In this document: positions 2,260-9,927 of the stretch, one piece after another
Numbering within the stretch: position 1 is the first letter of the stretch
Layout of the letters: each line of letters starts with the position of its first letter
NCBI RefSeq assembly: GCF_056746865.1
Contig: NZ_CM163382.1
Strand: one strand, 5' to 3'
DNA: 64,000 nt
Notes under the pieces: generated by a model
Databases searched by the model: none
Told to the model about the DNA's origin: nothing
Seen by the model: only the letters and a program-made list of their open reading frames with translations
Translations under genes and position numbers: made by a program

Positions 2260-3209
<950 letters not shown>

Positions 3210-3235
<26 letters not shown>

Positions 3236-3938
3236 GATGCCAGCGCAGCAAGTTTGCCATCGCAAAGAGATATTTTTCGCTGGCTTCGTCGGAGGAGATG
3301 GGTGGAAACTCTGCGGTGATGCAATGCAGGTTGAGATCCGCACACCAACTGCCGAAAGAGCCAGGCGTTTCATAACCGACGCTGGTTACCAGAGGCAATT
3401 CAAACGCCTGGGCCAGCCATTCACCTAATTCGCTGTGTCTGGGATCTTCAATACAGGCCAGCGGATCGTGGAATGAGACCACCCAGGCGGGTTGAATGCG
3501 GTGTATAAGCTGGCACAGCGCCTGGGTTTCAGGTTCAGAGCCAGGTTTGTCACCTGTCAGCAATACGACATCACGTTCTTCAGCGGCGCTGTTCCAGCGA
3601 TAAACGGTTTCACCTTCCTTCCAATTCGCCGCCGGAAAGTTTCTGTTTAAATCCACACCATTAGCATTGGCCCGTAACCCCAACTGGCAGCCGTCAGGAT
3701 TCACACACAGCACCACATGATGACGGCGCAAAGAAGGTGTCAACGTCCGCAGAGCACAGGAGAGCGTGACGACCGAAGAGTTTTCATCACCGTGAGTGCC
3801 AGCCAGAATCAAACCACTTTCGCGGCTGGCTGCAGGGGCAGGAAACCAGATTAACGGCGCGCCCAATAATGAACGTCCGTAATGTTCTGTTCCGGGCGGA
3901 AATGCGCCGCGTTCGGCGCGTGGGCGGGTTACGGTCAT
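3210..3938 (-). CDS. mpaA: Murein tripeptide amidase A (zinc carboxypeptidase-like), 242 aa
   Basis: ORF 3210..3998; start set to internal Met (MTVTRPRAERGAF...) giving 242 aa; 3' end overlaps ycjG 3' end on opposite strand. Confidence 0.88.
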
Positions 3939-4033
3939 GATCGTCTCTGGTTCAGGAAGTATTACAGGCAGTGTTGTGCAAATTTTGCGGATTATCAAAT
4001 CCTTTTCTTCAACGCTATGTCATCGATCTTGTA

Positions 4034-4064
4034 TCACTTTTTTGCCGGAAGTTGTTTGCATTTT
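4034..4064. promoter_or_regulatory. Conserved ~30-bp motif upstream of mpaA (near-identical copy upstream of mppA)
   Basis: tcacttttttgccggaagttgtttgcatttt here versus tcacttttttgatggaagttgtttgcatttc at 7145..7175; 28/31 identical. Confidence 0.45.
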
Positions 4065-4228
4065 CATTGATGTGCAGATATTAGAATTGTCGTAATGTTA
4101 TATACATGGCGTATTTTATTCTTACTGGTTCTACACATGTTAATCGCATCTGATTGATCAGTTCACCTTAATAAGTTTAATAAATCGTACTGCACATAGT
4201 ACAGTACGAAGGTAGCTATATAATTGAT

Positions 4229-4867
4229 TTACATGAAGAATGGCTTATCGCCATCAGTCCCGGGCTGATTGATGCCTATATTCTCACCAATGTGTTTCTC
4301 AGGTTTATCGATGATATCTGTAATTAATGCTGCGACACTCTTACGTGATACGATCGTACCTTTGAATGGTTCATTGCGTGAGGTAAGCTCATAATCAATA
4401 ATATCTTCATCGGTCAGCCAGGCAGGGCGAAGAATTGTATATTCCAGTCCAGAAGCCTCAATTGCATCCGCAGCCCTGCGGAATGGTTTTAGGGGCTCAC
4501 CAATAACTGCATTATTCCATTCGCCAAATTTTCCTGGAACTTCATCATAAATACCGAGGGAAAGAACAAAGATCAGACGTTTAACATCACAGGCTTTCAT
4601 CGCAGCGATCACTGAATTTGCCTGAATATCTAAATCTTCCCCCGTAAGGTTGGCATACACAACATCCTGTCCCTGCATGGCCTGCTTCAGTGCCGCATGA
4701 TTCAGTACATCCCCCATAATAATCTTGCTATTAGTTGGATAGGGTTTGTGGATTTTTGCTGGCTGACGGGCAAATAAAGTTTGTTTAATGGTTTGTTTAT
4801 CTGCCAGTTGATTAATCACATGGCGGGCTATCTGACCGCCAGCACCAAGAATCAGTACATTTTTCAT
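4229..4867 (-). CDS. ymjC: NAD(P)-binding NmrA/SDR-like oxidoreductase, 212 aa, uninterrupted
   Basis: N-terminal Rossmann motif ILGAGGQIARHV; position between mpaA and ycjY; symbol assigned by synteny and is less certain than the product class. Confidence 0.7.
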   Translation of the reverse strand: MKNVLILGAGGQIARHVINQLADKQTIKQTLFARQPAKIHKPYPTNSKIIMGDVLNHAALKQAMQGQDVVYANLTGEDLDIQANSVIAAMKACDVKRLIFVLSLGIYDEVPGKFGEWNNAVIGEPLKPFRRAADAIEASGLEYTILRPAWLTDEDIIDYELTSRNEPFKGTIVSRKSVAALITDIIDKPEKHIGENIGINQPGTDGDKPFFM

Positions 4868-4937
4868 GAAACTTTTCCCAGATTATTGGCAGCAATATGC
4901 CAGGCCATATCACTATTACGGATTTGAATATGTTTCA

Positions 4938-5858
4938 TTACAGAGTTTCCTCAAAGAACGGCGCTAATACTGAAATTGCTTCAGCCACATAGACTTTGCC
5001 GTCATAAAGATCCATATGGTTTGCGCCTTCAACAATGTGATAGCGTTTATCCTGGCTTGATGCTCGATCGTACAGGTCGTCACTCATCCATTTGCTCCCT
5101 GCCTGGCTGCCCGCCACAATCTGTATCGGCTGAGTCAGGTACACTTCCGCCATATGGTAAGCATCATAGGTAATAATCTGGTTAAGGCTGCGCAAAGTAG
5201 TGTAACCCGGTGCTGTTGGATACTGCGCGCGAGGGGTGTGGTAATACTCCCAGGCCTGACGCAGTTCTTCGTTCGGCGCATCGGACTCCTTCATTGGTGC
5301 CAGTGGCATGGTGGCGTATTCTCCGCTGCTAATATCGCTGGTTCGGGCGTTTGAACCCGCGTCAACGTATGGTAGGGCATCAATAGATTTCACATTGTTT
5401 TCCCAACCATTACGGAACATCGAACCAATATTGACCGCACTAACAGTACCGATGGCCTTGATGCGGCGATCCTGAATTGCAGCATTGGCTGTATATCCTG
5501 CACCGGCACAAATTCCCATCGCACCAATTCGGCTATTGTCGACATAAGAAAGCGTTGTCAGATAATCAATCACGGCACTGACGTCTTCAGTACGAATGTA
5601 TGGGTTTTCTAACTGACGCGGCTCGCCGCCGCTTTCACCTTGATAAGATGCGTCATAAGCAATAGTGACAAATCCCTTTTCCGCCAGTTTTTCGGCATAG
5701 GTTCCAGCCGTTTGCTCTTTAACGCCCCCACCTGGGTGAGATACCACAATTGCCGGATACTGACGGGTTTCATCAAATTTTGGAGGGAAATAGATCACTG
5801 CAGACAAAGAGATGGTTGGATTATTGCTGTTAGTGAAGCTGACTTTATTATTCATCAT
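4938..5858 (-). CDS. ycjY: Alpha/beta hydrolase (dienelactone hydrolase-like), 306 aa
   Basis: ORF 4938..5870; start set to internal Met for 306 aa; GxSxG-like segment GAMGICAGAGY. Confidence 0.8.
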   Translation of the reverse strand: MMNNKVSFTNSNNPTISLSAVIYFPPKFDETRQYPAIVVSHPGGGVKEQTAGTYAEKLAEKGFVTIAYDASYQGESGGEPRQLENPYIRTEDVSAVIDYLTTLSYVDNSRIGAMGICAGAGYTANAAIQDRRIKAIGTVSAVNIGSMFRNGWENNVKSIDALPYVDAGSNARTSDISSGEYATMPLAPMKESDAPNEELRQAWEYYHTPRAQYPTAPGYTTLRSLNQIITYDAYHMAEVYLTQPIQIVAGSQAGSKWMSDDLYDRASSQDKRYHIVEGANHMDLYDGKVYVAEAISVLAPFFEETL

Positions 5859-5928
5859 TCCGTTCCTCATGGAGTTGTCGGTTCGTTTTAACGGTTGGTG
5901 ATATCACTATAGATATTGATCATTAAGT

Positions 5929-5971
5929 TGATTAGACCCAAAATCATGATTAGACCTATCATTTAAATGAT
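5929..5971. promoter_or_regulatory. Putative LysR-type operator in the ycjY-pgrR divergent region
   Basis: direct repeat tgattagacc x2 (5929..5938, 5947..5956) followed by perfect palindrome atcatttaaatgat (5958..5971), 25 bp upstream of the pgrR ATG. Confidence 0.4.
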
Positions 5972-5995
5972 TAATAGATTGTATGGAGATACTGA

Positions 5996-6895
5996 ATGAA
6001 GCGTGAAGAAATCGCTGATCTGATGGCGTTTGTCGTCGTTGCAGAGGAGCGTAGCTTCACTCGCGCAGCAGCCCGCCTGAGCATGGCGCAGTCAGCTTTA
6101 AGCCAGATAGTGCGCCGTATAGAAGAACGATTGGGATTGCGGCTTCTGACACGAACCACGCGCAGCGTTGTACCCACTGAAGCGGGCGAGCATCTTTTGT
6201 CTGTTCTTGGCCCTATGTTGCATGACATAGATTCTGCCCTGACATCCCTGAGCGATCTGCAGAACCGCCCATCCGGGACAATACGTATTACTACTGTAGA
6301 ACATGCAGCAAAAACGATATTGTTACCAGCTATGCGCACATTCCTGAAATCGCATCCTGAAATTGATATCCAGCTTACCATTGATTATGGTTTGACCGAT
6401 GTCGTTTCTGAACGTTTTGATGCAGGCGTCCGTCTGGGTGGGGAGATGGATAAAGATATGATCGCCATTCGAATCGGGCCAGATATACCAATGGCTATTG
6501 TTGGCTCACCGGATTATTTTTCTCGTCGAAGTGCTCCAACGTCAGTGTCACAATTAATAGATCATCAGGCAATTAATTTGTATCTTCCCACATCGGGTAC
6601 AGCAAATCGCTGGAGATTAATACGCGGTGGACGTGAAGTTCGTGTTCGCATGGAAGGTCAGCTTTTACTGAATACGATAGACCTGATCATTGATGCTGCA
6701 ATTGATGGGCATGGATTGGCGTATCTACCTTATGATCAGGTTGAGCGGGCTATTAAAGAAAAAAAACTGATACGTGTTTTGGATAAATTCACACCAGATT
6801 TACCCGGTTATCACCTGTACTATCCACACCGTCGACATGCTGGCTCGGCATTCTCATTATTTATAGATAGGCTGAAGTATAAAGGTGCTGTTTAG
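5996..6895 (+). CDS. pgrR: LysR-family transcriptional regulator PgrR (YcjZ), 299 aa
   Basis: N-terminal HTH MKREEIADLMAFVVVAEERSFTRAAARLSMAQSALSQ; LysR substrate-binding domain; synteny. Confidence 0.85.
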   Translation: MKREEIADLMAFVVVAEERSFTRAAARLSMAQSALSQIVRRIEERLGLRLLTRTTRSVVPTEAGEHLLSVLGPMLHDIDSALTSLSDLQNRPSGTIRITTVEHAAKTILLPAMRTFLKSHPEIDIQLTIDYGLTDVVSERFDAGVRLGGEMDKDMIAIRIGPDIPMAIVGSPDYFSRRSAPTSVSQLIDHQAINLYLPTSGTANRWRLIRGGREVRVRMEGQLLLNTIDLIIDAAIDGHGLAYLPYDQVERAIKEKKLIRVLDKFTPDLPGYHLYYPHRRHAGSAFSLFIDRLKYKGAV

Positions 6896-7144
6896 CACTA
6901 CTTGCTGATACATTAATTTAATTCTTCTCTTAACGTATTCTCAGTTCCTTTCAACGTTTTGGTCATTTTTTATTCTTCGTACAATGGCGACAGATGCTGA
7001 TTATGATACCGAAAACGGGTTTGAACGTGCGAAGCCCGAACGTAGTGTTCGGAGTTCTATGTGCTTTACCGCATTTTGGAGACTATTATTTACACTAAAT
7101 CTGATTTGATATATTGATACTTAAAACATTTGATGCTTCCTTTG

Positions 7145-7175
7145 TCACTTTTTTGATGGAAGTTGTTTGCATTTC
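7145..7175. promoter_or_regulatory. Conserved ~30-bp motif upstream of mppA (copy of the mpaA-upstream motif)
   Basis: 28/31 identity to 4034..4064; lies 57-87 bp upstream of the mppA start. Confidence 0.45.
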
Positions 7176-7231
7176 TTTAAGGCGAAACAAATAATTACGC
7201 ATCAATTTTAATGTCGGTTAGAGGGAAACTT

Positions 7232-8845
7232 ATGAAGCACTCTGTTTCAGTCACGTGTTGTGCGCTGTTGGTCAGCAGCATTTCTCTTTCGTATGCTGCA
7301 GAAGTTCCGAGCGGCACAGTACTGGCAGAGAAGCAGGAGCTGGTGCGCCACATTAAAGATGAGCCTGCGTCGCTGGATCCCGCTAAAGCCGTGGGCCTGC
7401 CAGAGATTCAGGTCATTCGCGATCTGTTTGAAGGACTGGTGAATCAGAACGAGAAAGGGGAGATTGTCCCCGGCGTTGCGACTCAGTGGAAAAGTAATGA
7501 CAACCGTATCTGGACTTTTACCCTGCGCGATAACGCAAAATGGGCGGATGGCACACTGGTAACGGCGCAAGATTTTGTCTACAGCTGGCAACGTCTGGTG
7601 GACCCTAAAACGCTATCGCCATTTGCATGGTTTGCCGCGCTGGCGGGAATCAACAACGCACAGGCGATTATTGATGGTAAAGCTACGCCTGACCAGCTTG
7701 GCGTCACCGCAGTTGATGCCCATACTTTGAAAATCCAGCTTGATAAACCGTTGCCGTGGTTTGTGAATTTAACCGCTAACTTTGCCTTCTTCCCGGTGCA
7801 AAAAGCCAACGTAGAAAGCAGTAAAGAGTGGACGAAACCCGGAAAACTGATCGGTAATGGCGCTTATGTTCTTAAAGAGCGCGTAGTCAATGAAAAACTG
7901 GTCGTGGTACCGAATACCCATTATTGGGATAACGCCAAAACGGTGCTGCAAAAAGTGACTTTCCTGCCAATTAATCAGGAATCCGCAGCCACTAAGCGTT
8001 ACCTCGCGGGGGATATTGATATCACCGAATCCTTCCCGAAAAATATGTATCAGAAGCTGTTGAAGGATATTCCGGGGCAGGTTTATACGCCGCCGCAGCT
8101 CGGGACCTATTATTATGCGTTTAACACGCAAAAAGGGCCGACGGCAGATCAGCGCGTTCGCCTGGCATTAAGTATGACGATAGATCGCCGCCTGATGACC
8201 GAAAAAGTGTTGGGGACGGGCGAAAAGCCAGCGTGGCATTTTACACCAGATGTTACCGCGGGATTTACGCCGGAACCTTCGCCGTTTGAACAAATGAGTC
8301 AGGAAGAACTGAATGCGCAGGCAAAAACTTTGTTGAGCGCCGCTGGTTATGGTCCGCAAAAACCGCTGAAGCTGACGCTTTTGTATAACACTTCAGAAAA
8401 CCATCAAAAAATTGCGATTGCTGTAGCATCAATGTGGAAAAAGAACCTTGGCGTAGATGTTAAATTGCAAAATCAGGAATGGAAAACCTATATCGATAGC
8501 CGTAACACCGGCAATTTTGATGTTATCCGAGCCTCGTGGGTAGGGGATTATAATGAACCCTCCACTTTCCTGACATTATTAACGTCAACGCATTCAGGAA
8601 ATATTTCACGCTTTAACAATCCGGCATACGACAAAGTACTGGCCCAGGCATCAACGGAAAATACCGTTAAAGCGCGTAATGCCGATTACAACGCGGCAGA
8701 AAAAATCCTCATGGAGCAAGCACCGATTGCACCAATTTATCAATATACCAATGGACGATTAATCAAGCCGTGGCTGAGAGGTTATCCCATTAATAACCCG
8801 GAAGATGTGGCGTACAGTCGGACTATGTATATTGTGAAGCATTGA
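7232..8845 (+). CDS. mppA: Periplasmic murein tripeptide-binding protein (OppA paralogue), 537 aa
   Basis: ORF 7211..8845; start set to internal Met for 537 aa; signal peptide MKHSVSVTCCALLVSSISLSYA; family 5 substrate-binding protein. Confidence 0.88.
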   Translation: MKHSVSVTCCALLVSSISLSYAAEVPSGTVLAEKQELVRHIKDEPASLDPAKAVGLPEIQVIRDLFEGLVNQNEKGEIVPGVATQWKSNDNRIWTFTLRDNAKWADGTLVTAQDFVYSWQRLVDPKTLSPFAWFAALAGINNAQAIIDGKATPDQLGVTAVDAHTLKIQLDKPLPWFVNLTANFAFFPVQKANVESSKEWTKPGKLIGNGAYVLKERVVNEKLVVVPNTHYWDNAKTVLQKVTFLPINQESAATKRYLAGDIDITESFPKNMYQKLLKDIPGQVYTPPQLGTYYYAFNTQKGPTADQRVRLALSMTIDRRLMTEKVLGTGEKPAWHFTPDVTAGFTPEPSPFEQMSQEELNAQAKTLLSAAGYGPQKPLKLTLLYNTSENHQKIAIAVASMWKKNLGVDVKLQNQEWKTYIDSRNTGNFDVIRASWVGDYNEPSTFLTLLTSTHSGNISRFNNPAYDKVLAQASTENTVKARNADYNAAEKILMEQAPIAPIYQYTNGRLIKPWLRGYPINNPEDVAYSRTMYIVKH

Positions 8846-8895
8846 TGTGATGGGAATTGGCGTTACCCTTGTGGATAACGCCAGTGATGTCTGAT

Positions 8896-9927
8896 TTAGC
8901 GACCCTGGTCCGGCGGTGTAATGTTATCCATATACAGCGTCTGGCTGGGGAAGGCAAAGTCCGCGCCGTGTGACTGTACAATATCGATAATCTTCAAATA
9001 AACGTCTTGCTGTGCAGCAAGCCATTCAGCCCATACCGTGGTTTTGGTAAAGCAATAAACCATAATATTCAATGAGGAGTCAGCAAACTGGTTGAAATAA
9101 ACCAGTAAGGTTTGTCGCTGGTCAATGGCCGGGTGATTTTTCAGCATCTCACGTACGGCTTCGACAATAACGCCCACTTTTGCCGCATCCTCATAACGTA
9201 AACCAATGGTCGTGGTAATGCGCCGGTTGGTCATTCGTCCTGGGTTTTCTACGCTGATTGACGAAAACAGCGAGTTCGGTACGTACAACGGACGATTATC
9301 AAAAGTCGTAATCTTGGTAATTCGCCAGCCAATTTCCGATACTGTACCTTCGATATTTCTGTCCGGTGAACGGATCCAGTCGCCAATACTAAAAGGACGG
9401 TCGAAATAGAGCATAATCCCGGAAAAGAAGTTACTCAGAATATCTTTACCGGCCATACCGACAGCCAGACCACCAATACCACCAAAGGTCAACAAGCCAG
9501 AAAGGCTCATGCCGAAATGTTCGCCATAAAGCAGAACAAGCACCACAATAATGGTGATTTTGATGATACGCGACATAATCCGCGCACTGGTGATATCGCG
9601 ACCTTTTTTAATCTGCTGTTTTTCAAACTGATTAATCAGCAGAAATAGCTTAATCGTCAGAATAACCGCAATCAGGGACGTACAGATAAAATCGATAACG
9701 CCTGGGGTGATAAATTTGAGTTTATAGTTTTCTATAACATAATTAATGATGCTACCAACAGCACTGATAATTATGGTGTAGATTAAAAATTGCACCGCAT
9801 GGAATAAAAAACCTTTTCTTTTACGATTTCCGCGGCGAAACCAAAAGCTCATCAGAATCAATGCTGCGCAGCTACCGAAAATAATGACCAGATTAAGCGC
9901 ATTATTTGTAAACAGTTCAGCGATCAT
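8896..9927 (-). CDS. ynaI: MscS-family mechanosensitive channel, 343 aa
   Basis: multi-TM N-terminus and MscS-like beta domain; synteny. Confidence 0.85.

Follow-up and report, generated by a model that had tools for sequence, protein, structure and literature searches.

Direct repeats bracketing a block of DNA are known from insertion sequences and transposons, where repeats of the target lie immediately outside the inserted DNA, and from genomic islands and prophages, whose attL and attR sites place a core on both sides of the element where the empty site holds one. Target duplications left by transposons are typically 2-14 bp, with a length that is fixed for each element. A short conserved intergenic motif adjoining a LysR-type gene can also suggest an operator of the regulator, and PgrR, a LysR-type protein, has been named as a regulator of peptidoglycan recycling. 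In the 64-kb window of DNA analysed here, a 31-bp motif adjoins pgrR in just this way, with one copy upstream of mpaA and another upstream of mppA, two genes of the murein tripeptide pathway. A motif pair with a regulator gene between its members looks like the signature of a regulon, a tempting lead that our findings argue is false: the pair is very probably the scar of an insertion, namely the flanking duplication left by the single insertion of a block carrying pgrR. We found no description of the insertion or the repeats in the literature on ycjY, ymjC, ymjD, mpaA and pgrR. The features of the locus, by position in the window, are as follows.

3210-3938, minus strand: mpaA, murein tripeptide amidase (NCBIfam NF007897, 478.9 bits against a cutoff of 157; RefSeq annotation).
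3939-4033, minus strand: mpaA-proximal ancestral spacer, with conserved blocks GCAGTGTTGTGCAAA (3972-3986) and TCAAAT (3999-4004) in a 21-species alignment.
4034-4064, plus strand: left copy of the motif, TCACTTTTTTGCCGGAAGTTGTTTGCATTTT (sequence reading and pattern search).
4065-7144, no strand: inserted cassette of 3,080 bp, holding ymjC, a ymjD remnant, ycjY, pgrR and a queH pseudogene fragment; missing in 72 species and 174 E. coli genomes.
4185-4209, minus strand: terminator-like hairpin just 3' of ymjC, with an 11-bp stem and a 3-nt loop followed by UUUAUU.
4229-4867, minus strand: intact ymjC, 212 aa, an SDR-type (NAD_binding_10), NAD(P)H-binding protein (annotation and family match).
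4864-4938, minus strand: ymjD remnant of 24 codons, keeping only the N-terminal end of a second alpha/beta hydrolase gene.
4938-5858, minus strand: ycjY, alpha/beta hydrolase (RefSeq annotation, near-identical loci).
5918-5973, plus strand: dyad boxes GATCATTAAGTTGATTA (5918-5934) and TATCATTTAAATGATTA (5957-5973) in the ycjY-pgrR spacer, with arms conserved in Pluralibacter.
5996-6895, plus strand: pgrR (ycjZ), LysR-type regulator, divergent from ycjY (RefSeq annotation and family search).
6993-7067, plus strand: queH pseudogene fragment of 25 codons at the right cassette end (as annotated by RefSeq in the corresponding part of strain CEC03102; translation).
7145-7175, plus strand: right copy of the motif, TCACTTTTTTGATGGAAGTTGTTTGCATTTC (sequence reading and pattern search).
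7176-7231, plus strand: mppA-proximal ancestral spacer, with an invariant 15-nt block GAAACAAATAATTAC (7184-7198) that includes the -10 hexamer AATAAT (7190-7195).
7232-8845, plus strand: mppA, murein tripeptide binding protein, translation beginning MKHSVSV (RefSeq annotation, near-identical loci).

The original prediction of a near-identical pair was borne out, with 28 of 31 positions equal and 3 different, as were the placements it gave: the left copy spans 95-126 nt upstream of the start of mpaA, the right copy ends 56 nt ahead of the mppA ATG (7232), and pgrR lies between them, with gene names taken from the RefSeq annotation of near-identical E. coli loci. A repeat search extended the pair weakly to 37 nt (4027-4063 and 7138-7174, 86%), by far the longest direct repeat within 3000-9000. 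No further match with up to 3 mismatches was found in the window by pattern search, and 100 dinucleotide-preserving shuffles gave no chance match to the motif. Searching genome-wide for further copies, as had been proposed, we found a 40-nt query in 5,419 of 5,426 complete E. coli genomes, with 2 places per genome at the median and never more than 4, and the median two places are both the mpaA/mppA locus. The motif is thus specific to this locus rather than a dispersed or generic repeat, and in E. coli genomes it lacks the many copies at unrelated loci that mark REP, BIME, ERIC and MITE elements. Among known RNA families (Rfam), none matched across 3800-7400, where a lone sub-threshold RAGATH-10 match fell inside pgrR.

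We sought the state of the locus without pgrR in 72 species representatives from more than 15 genera that have an uninterrupted mpaA-mppA spacer, including Citrobacter, Enterobacter, Klebsiella, Kluyvera, Leclercia, Pluralibacter and others, as well as E. albertii, E. whittamii and three further Escherichia lineages. In all of these Enterobacteriaceae mpaA and mppA are directly divergent, with a spacer of mostly 180-190 bp (range 138-316), and the proposed check of conservation across the family revealed a single copy of the motif in 70 of the 72 spacers. The cassette was present at this locus in none of the 72 species and, in the genera examined, nowhere outside Escherichia. An uninterrupted site of 182 bp was also found in 174 of the 5,426 complete E. 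coli genomes (e.g., AR_0077, ST648 and MS6198). In the window, the pieces on either side of the cassette measure 126 bp (3939-4064) and 87 bp (7145-7231), which less the 31-bp overlap gives 182 bp. E. coli AR_0077 and all five Escherichia loci that lack the cassette have a spacer of exactly this length. In an alignment of 21 species and the two E. coli pieces, these pieces join end to end along the cassette-free Escherichia spacers. Thus, 4065-7144 was inserted, and a segment of the target was duplicated on its two sides. As expected of an indel scar, the flanks minus one repeat rebuild the empty site exactly and the content between them is foreign. The two copies do share the plus-strand orientation while their genes lie on opposite strands, as had been pointed out, but this is not odd, since a direct duplication predicts it. 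Chance similarity between two AT-rich intergenic stretches, for which the AT-richness of the region is the only argument, is refuted by the shuffles and by the base-for-base rebuilding of a known 182-bp sequence, and we give it virtually no credence.

The same repeats could in principle have worked in the other direction, with the two-copy cassette state being ancestral and the single-copy spacers derived from it by a deletion between the repeats. A crossover between direct repeats of 31 bp would yield the clean empty site observed, and it may account for part or even all of the 174 empty E. coli, which may be either ancestral or secondary precise excisions. As a general account, however, this polarity is highly improbable given the spread of the single-copy state over 72 species and more than 15 genera, the restriction of the cassette at this locus to Escherichia, the occurrence of its gene module at other loci elsewhere, and the foreign G+C content and queH stub, which indicate acquisition. 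In addition, a flanking base is T (TATGTTATCG) in empty E. coli and in neighbouring species, whereas it is C in the cassette-bearing E. coli examined.

Under the preferred reading of a single insertion, mpaA and mppA of the ancestor would have diverged from a spacer of ~182 bp with the segment in a single copy. A foreign block of 3.1 kb (~4 kb in its fullest form) would then have entered this spacer in the ancestry of most E. coli, carrying an SDR gene, two alpha/beta hydrolase genes, the divergent LysR regulator gene pgrR and the remnant of an adjoining queH gene. The two junctions would be offset, the left one falling 31 bp, or perhaps as much as 38 bp, rightward of the other; the target stretch in between now stands on both sides in the same orientation. 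The right copy still belongs to the TTGCAT-17-AATAAT element of mppA. The left copy would be a relic, free to decay after losing its -10, while mpaA would keep its long-standing upstream sequence.

The content of the cassette fits an origin outside this locus. Its G+C content is 44.1%, compared to 52.1% in the left flank. Homologues of YcjY with 82-85% identity were found in Rhizobium, Sphingobium, Burkholderia and Pluralibacter, and the divergent module of a LysR gene, ycjY and a second hydrolase gene lies at unrelated loci in Pluralibacter, where the LysR partner is 79% identical to PgrR, and on a JGI metagenome contig; on another contig the module adjoins a nuo-type (NADH dehydrogenase) gene cluster. 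In O157-like strains the second hydrolase gene, ymjD, has its full length but a frameshift; other genera have it intact. We read the queH fragment as a piece of the donor genome's neighbouring gene. A donor with contiguous genes for the SDR protein, the second hydrolase, YcjY, PgrR and QueH was not found among the YcjY matches, the closest non-identical of which were E. coli-like loci or modules at other loci.

How the block entered can be narrowed by what it carries. Annotation and family searches of all cassette genes revealed no transposase or integrase, and the cassette ends have no terminal inverted repeats of at least 7 nt. Unlike an insertion sequence or transposon, which would bring a short duplication, inverted repeats and a transposase, the cassette is flanked by a repeat of 31-38 bp, and its open reading frames encode only an SDR protein, a hydrolase and a LysR regulator. 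Since transposase, integrase and terminal repeats are lacking and the cassette ends inside a gene fragment, the recombination was most likely illegitimate and not element-encoded. No direct repeats flank the LysR-YcjY module at three other loci, so there appears to be no general mechanism by which this module makes duplications. Counting against the insertion-scar account, a duplication of 31-38 bp exceeds the classical transposon duplications, and the exact-boundary edge of a 673-bp deletion in other strains is not predicted by simple illegitimate recombination.

This deletion, of 4065-4737, truncates ymjC in K-12-type strains, and its left edge is the cassette boundary, exact to the base. 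This brings in the possibility that the 31-bp segment is a preferred recombination site, with the pgrR cassette moving into and out of the mpaA/mppA promoter as a circle by crossover inside the segment, which we consider unlikely. Were it so, the same spot would attract both the K-12-type deletion and the cdtABC toxin island of Salmonella arizonae and diarizonae, and a core promoter would be a recurrent entry point for foreign DNA. The more specific proposal, in which the segment is an att-like or homology site and the excised circle re-integrates through RecA or a recombinase acting in trans, is slightly less likely still. In line with such mobility, the island is flanked by direct repeats, a core on both sides answers to a single core in the empty sites as at attL and attR, and 174 E. 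coli have clean single-copy empty sites. Moreover, Escherichia sp. E1V33 has a left copy of the coli type (GTTG) and a right copy of the native type (GTTA), as a crossover inside the motif would give; the K-12-type deletion begins at the identical boundary; and the junction of the unrelated cdt island in Salmonella diarizonae falls inside the motif. Against it, annotation and family searches of all cassette genes found no integrase or other recombinase in or beside the element, nor is there a transposase or a terminal inverted repeat. A gene fragment forms its right end, as random breakage would typically leave, and the LysR-YcjY module sits at three other loci without flanking direct repeats. 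E. coli genomes hold the motif at no other locus, and the Salmonella island replaced the mppA side without duplicating the motif. A prophage att site was also considered in E. coli MFDS1019527, where a tail-fibre gene abuts mppA; the prophage join replaces the 5' end of mppA, away from the motif, and we rejected this candidate.

The segment that was duplicated is, as judged from conservation and consensus, the upstream half of a promoter-like element of mppA, comprising a T-tract and a -35 hexamer. In the right copy these are the T-tract at 7149-7154 and TTTGCA (7166-7171) or TTGCAT (7167-7172). The spacing of TTTGCA-18-AATAAT (equivalent to TTGCAT-17-AATAAT) is invariant in 72 of 72 species, as is the presence of AATAAT, with the sequence between the hexamers varying, and a consensus scan also flagged 7166-7195 as promoter-like. 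Together with the -10 that follows it, the right copy thus presents sigma-70-like hexamers 17 ± 1 nt apart at a position conserved across species, and TTGCAT-17-AATAAT presumably drives mppA, just ahead of whose ATG lies the ribosome-binding site AGAGGGA. A sigma-54 reading of the conserved GGCAGTGTTGTGCAAA block was set aside, its spacing being one base below consensus by eye. Upstream of mpaA, a simple scan of 3939-4033 gave no sigma-70 match; this stretch presumably holds mpaA's own promoter or control region.

The fates of the two copies appear to differ. The right copy has GAT in place of the ancestral GCC at 7155-7157 but is still contiguous with the upstream region of mppA, and its changes (GCC to GAT and a 1-nt T deletion) sit in columns that also vary between genera. 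The left copy agrees with the empty site over its first 30 positions (4034-4063), retains a -35-like TTTGCA (4055-4060) and has kept its position relative to the mpaA start; the cassette separates it from the -10. At two O157-like loci the left copy reads TTTGTA, with the mutated GC pair being invariant in 72 of 72 species, which suggests that this copy is decaying. It is well conserved within E. coli, a species too young for this to prove or disprove constraint. The pair in E1V33 looks younger, with a single difference in 30 positions and GCC in both copies.

These findings bear on the original prediction of a shared operator or promoter element. The promoter part holds, in that the right copy contributes the -35 and T-tract of the putative mppA promoter. 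The operator part is not supported as the cause of the two copies, which stem from the duplication of one ancestral segment at the insertion of the cassette. A version in which a single factor, be it PgrR or some other, binds both copies and so coordinates the two genes, with both copies being needed and hence kept, seems to us improbable, a shade more so than movement of the cassette by crossover in the segment. The segment does lie upstream of both genes of one pathway, the ancestral single copy stood between divergent mpaA and mppA, and a 5' block, TCA-n(1-2)-TTT, shows more conservation across genera than the -35 hexamer by itself would call for. The duplication also preserved the segment for both genes, and such an insertion may have been the least harmful. 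Yet duplication alone fully accounts for the two copies and their common orientation. Furthermore, the motif is older than pgrR at this locus, with 70 of 72 species having a single copy and none having pgrR here. The motif and the regulator therefore do not co-occur across genomes as a PgrR operator should, and in Pluralibacter a PgrR orthologue is encoded elsewhere in the genome while the mpaA-mppA spacer holds a single copy. The left copy tolerates change in its most conserved block in O157-like strains. Neither mppA nor the spacer upstream of mpaA is among the published SELEX or RegulonDB targets of PgrR (PMC5934670; PMC10505187).

In K-12, the only genomic-SELEX target of PgrR in this locus is the ycjY/ycjZ spacer (PMC5934670), and RegulonDB lists ycjG, ycjXF-tyrR and ycjY-ymjDC-mpaA as its targets (PMC10505187 supplements). 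The dyad boxes GATCATTAAGTTGATTA and TATCATTTAAATGATTA in the ycjY-pgrR spacer are candidate PgrR operators. The motif shares with this spacer a longest common word of 7 nt, and a search that tolerated 3 mismatches found the dyad TATCAT-N4-ATGATTA neither in the two copies nor anywhere in 3939-4228 and 6896-7231. The insertion scar suggests that PgrR came in with a foreign cassette as its regulator, a private LysR regulator of a widely travelled set of hydrolase genes that landed upstream of mpaA. The reported control of mpaA runs via the ycjY-ymjDC-mpaA operon, as defined in K-12, and since PgrR came with the cassette, this control may be an accident of position.

It may also depend on the 673-bp deletion, which removes the terminator-like hairpin at 4185-4209 between the cassette genes and mpaA in K-12-type strains. 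The hairpin has a dG of -15.9 kcal/mol (z of -3.3), and 0 of 200 shuffles folded equally well. Among complete E. coli genomes, roughly 40% have the K-12-type deletion, ~54% keep the hairpin and 3% are without the cassette. With the hairpin kept in some strains and the cassette missing in others, regulation of mpaA probably varies among E. coli strains.

Compared with the known systems, the locus differs from attL/attR pairs in having no integrase, in a core that lies outside a tRNA or other usual att locus, in a cassette that ends in a gene fragment, and in having no known second copy in the genome or attP on the element. Compared with the operator of a LysR-type regulator, the 31-bp motif is without T-N11-A dyad symmetry, unlike the TATCAT-N4-ATGATTA dyads. 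The right copy resembles a sigma-70 promoter with a UP-like T-tract, with TTGCAT as the -35 and AATAAT as the -10, 17 nt apart, and a T-tract that precedes the -35 by ~20 nt. It departs from such a promoter in that the conserved -10 block GAAACAAATAATTAC, at 15 nt, is longer than the hexamer requires, and this invariant block may also hold a regulator site. Genomic islets and indels with a duplicated target, which enter by illegitimate or short-homology recombination, resemble the locus in having a foreign block in a conserved site, single-copy empty sites, direct repeats, passenger genes and a fragment of a donor's neighbouring gene. The difference is that the duplicated stretch of 31-38 bp is here half of a promoter-like element, and the scar thus resembles a regulatory motif.

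Two near-identical copies of a 31-bp motif, at 4034-4064 and 7145-7175 and both on the + strand, were seen both by reading the sequence and by pattern search, agreeing at 28/31 positions as originally predicted. They lie on either side of a group of genes between mpaA and mppA in the window, a stretch of an E. coli chromosome with the gene order tyrR, tpx, ycjG, mpaA (-), ymjC (-), ycjY (-), pgrR (+), mppA (+), ynaI, and form the longest direct repeat within 3000-9000, with a weak extension to 37 nt. Allowing up to 3 mismatches, we found no further match elsewhere in the 64-kb window, and none in 100 dinucleotide-preserving shuffles. The motif occurs at a median of two places per genome among 5,419 complete E. 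coli genomes. The window, shuffle and genome counts thus indicate that the pair is real and locus-specific, and not a dispersed repeat.

We collected mpaA neighbourhoods from 80 Enterobacteriaceae species representatives and mapped their flanking genes. The genes mpaA and mppA are directly divergent in 72/80, in genera that include Citrobacter, Enterobacter, Klebsiella, Raoultella, Kluyvera, Leclercia, Lelliottia, Pluralibacter, Kosakonia and Trabulsiella, and likewise in five Escherichia lineages (E. albertii, E. whittamii, Escherichia sp. MOD1-EC7003 and two records labelled E. coli that are separate species representatives). The spacer between them is mostly 180-190 bp long in these 72 species (range 138-316) and exactly 182 bp in 5/5 of the Escherichia lineages. 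The motif is conserved across Enterobacteriaceae, a point to which the original prediction had looked, and is present as a single copy in 70/72 uninterrupted spacers. In the window, the mpaA start and the far edge of the left copy enclose 126 bp of spacer (3939-4064), and another 87 bp run from the first base of the right copy up to the mppA start (7145-7231); less the 31-bp overlap these two pieces sum to 182 bp, and once joined they line up with the empty Escherichia spacers base by base. Therefore, 4065-7144 is a 3,080-bp insertion, and the two motif copies are one ancestral segment duplicated at both junctions. The shared orientation of the copies, previously flagged as puzzling, is the expected outcome of such a direct duplication. 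The motif pair is thus very probably an insertion scar, a reading that largely replaces that of a shared operator; we found no description of the pair or the scar in the searchable literature.

The inserted block, hereafter the cassette, is foreign. It carries the following features:

4185-4209, - strand: strong terminator-like hairpin, directly downstream of ymjC
ymjC, - strand: NAD(P)H-binding SDR
4864-4938: ymjD, a 24-codon N-terminal stub of a second alpha/beta hydrolase gene
4938-5858, - strand: ycjY, alpha/beta hydrolase
5918-5934 and 5957-5973: dyads GATCATTAAGTTGATTA and TATCATTTAAATGATTA, in the ycjY-pgrR spacer
pgrR, + strand: LysR regulator
6993-7067, cassette right end: queH pseudogene fragment of 25 codons (RefSeq annotation)

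The G+C content of the cassette is 44.1%, versus 52.1% to its left. No transposase or integrase genes and no terminal inverted repeats were found in it. The second hydrolase gene, of which the window has lost ~880 bp, is full length and frameshifted in the O157-like form of strain CEC03102 (locus L089, 1989-2919), and intact beside YcjY in Pluralibacter and in metagenome contigs. The queH fragment is a relic of a gene that neighboured the cassette in the donor genome. Homologues of YcjY with 82-85% identity occur in Rhizobium, Mesorhizobium, Agrobacterium, Sphingobium, Burkholderia and Pluralibacter; for alpha- and beta-proteobacteria this is far over the usual inter-class orthologue identity, which suggests that the LysR-hydrolase module has recently spread widely by horizontal transfer. 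The divergent LysR/YcjY/second-hydrolase unit is found at an unrelated place in Pluralibacter gergoviae, near lacI/lacZ-like genes, as well as in a JGI metagenome contig and, in another contig, directly after a nuo-type (NADH dehydrogenase) gene cluster. PgrR and the Pluralibacter LysR protein share 79% identity, and the mpaA-mppA spacer of Pluralibacter is itself uninterrupted. None of these other loci has flanking direct repeats around the unit, so the E. coli duplication seems to have arisen once, from the integration event, and not to be a property of the module.

Within E. coli the locus is variable. The uninterrupted 182-bp site is present in 174/5,426 complete genomes (e.g., AR_0077, ST648 and MS6198). 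One flank base is T in empty E. coli and in a neighbouring species and C in the cassette-bearing E. coli examined, and appears to favour an ancestral state of these 174 sites over precise excision. Segment 4065-4737 is kept in 2,942 complete genomes, among them the fuller form with the second hydrolase gene (CEC03102). By subtraction, ~40% have either the 673-bp deletion of K-12 type, by which ymjC is truncated, or a different rearrangement. Escherichia sp. E1V33 carries the cassette in its K-12 form, with copies that differ at only 1/30 positions and both retain GCC; the right copy of E. coli therefore changed from GCC to GAT after the duplication. Two further alterations were seen at this spacer. 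In E. coli MFDS1019527 a prophage tail-fibre gene adjoins mppA (L084, 3480-5980), and phage-side sequence stands in for the first ~50 bases of mppA and the entire region upstream of it, so that this mppA has a different N-terminus. The 316-bp spacer of Kluyvera genomosp. 1 (L079) has ~130 bp extra between the mpaA-side conserved blocks and the motif, another sign of this spacer accepting insertions.

Anchoring the 72 uninterrupted spacers on a conserved hexamer gave the consensus ataTCAatTTTctg.c.gAAGttaTTTGCAtTTC....tg.cGAAACAAATAATTAC. All 72/72 species have TTTGCA (or a one-base variant), exactly 18 nt, then AATAAT, equivalently read as TTGCAT, 17 nt, AATAAT, and the sequence between the hexamers varies. 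Fixed hexamers and spacing around varying sequence are the signature of a sigma-70-type promoter, and a simple consensus scan recovers the same site at 7166-7195, which would be expected to drive mppA. The duplicated 31 bp therefore comprise the -35 hexamer and, ~20 nt upstream of it, a T-tract. The right copy remains joined to the -10 (7190-7195) and the mppA ribosome-binding site; at the left copy, cassette DNA stands where the -10 was. The O157-like left copy reads TTTGTA, altering a GC pair that is invariant in 72/72 species. The changes in the right copy (GCC to GAT and, in O157-like strains, loss of a single T) affect alignment columns in which the genera differ as well. Judged from these substitutions, the two copies appear to decay asymmetrically, as expected. 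Two further conserved blocks were observed: GCAGTGTTGTGCAAA near mpaA (3972-3986), nearly invariant in the 21 species aligned, and GAAACAAATAATTAC spanning the mppA -10 (7184-7198), at least 80% conserved at every position in 72 species. Both are longer than promoter hexamers require and may contain sites for a regulator of the ancestral divergent pair.

The original prediction took the two copies for a shared operator of mpaA and mppA, possibly bound by PgrR. Evidence of three kinds speaks against PgrR as the ligand. First, the motif predates the arrival of pgrR at this locus; the examined genera conserve it, and none of them has pgrR here. Second, it does not resemble the ycjY-pgrR spacer, with which its longest common word is a 7-mer. 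The dyads in that spacer, whose arms are conserved in the orthologous Pluralibacter spacer, are candidate PgrR operators. No match to this dyad was found at up to 3 mismatches in or around either motif copy. Third, genomic SELEX in K-12, where both motif copies are present, named ycjY/ycjZ in this locus, and the mppA and mpaA upstream spacers are missing from the published target list (PMC5934670); the PgrR targets that RegulonDB gives are ycjG, ycjXF-tyrR and the ycjY-ymjDC-mpaA operon (PMC10505187 supplements). Action of some other factor on the conserved TCA...TTT block is possible. In the ancestral spacer this block was upstream of each of the divergent genes, and after the duplication each gene still has it.

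Both the ycjY-ymjDC-mpaA operon and the repression of this operon by PgrR were defined from work on K-12. In strains with the long form, to which the window belongs, the hairpin at 4185-4209 (11-bp stem, dG -15.9 kcal/mol, z -3.3) separates the cassette genes from mpaA, and the K-12-type deletion takes it out, so that co-transcription of ycjY and mpaA may be strain-dependent. Where the hairpin is retained, mpaA may rely for the most part on the ancestral region upstream of it (3939-4033), unaltered by the duplication. In that case PgrR would belong to an imported hydrolase cassette as its resident regulator, and the place where this cassette landed would account for the link between PgrR and murein-peptide recycling. 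On the other side of mpaA (-), its 3' end overlaps that of ycjG (+) by 26 bp (3210-3235), a convergent pair listed as an excludon (PMC12288877).

That the motif segment is a favoured site of recombination seems improbable to us, though three observations leave it a low probability. The K-12-type deletion, with ends at 4064/4065 and 4737/4738 (also L082 1360-1366; L004), begins precisely at the left edge of the cassette, and its junction, GCATTTT/ATTAGTTGG, is identical in K-12 and E1V33. The E1V33 copies, coli-like on the left and native-like on the right, look as though a crossover had taken place within the motif. An island of 3.1-3.4 kb occupies the mpaA-mppA spacer in Salmonella enterica subsp. 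arizonae and diarizonae:

L023 7449-9677 (arizonae): cytolethal distending toxin island, cdtA-cdtB-cdtC
L024 7374-9602 (diarizonae): cytolethal distending toxin island, cdtA-cdtB-cdtC

Of the Salmonella proteins, CdtB reaches 378.9 bits against NF011787, and CdtA gives a match to Pfam PF03498. In diarizonae the motif contains the mpaA-side junction (TATCAACTTTCTGCCGGA/TACAGAC); on the mppA promoter side the sequence has been replaced, without duplication.

We prefer a single insertion with duplication of the motif segment. A classical transposon footprint would be shorter than the 31-38 bp duplicated here; together with the lack of recombination functions in the cassette and the broken gene at its right end, this length favours illegitimate or short-homology recombination, by which a linear foreign fragment would have been integrated with staggered junctions.
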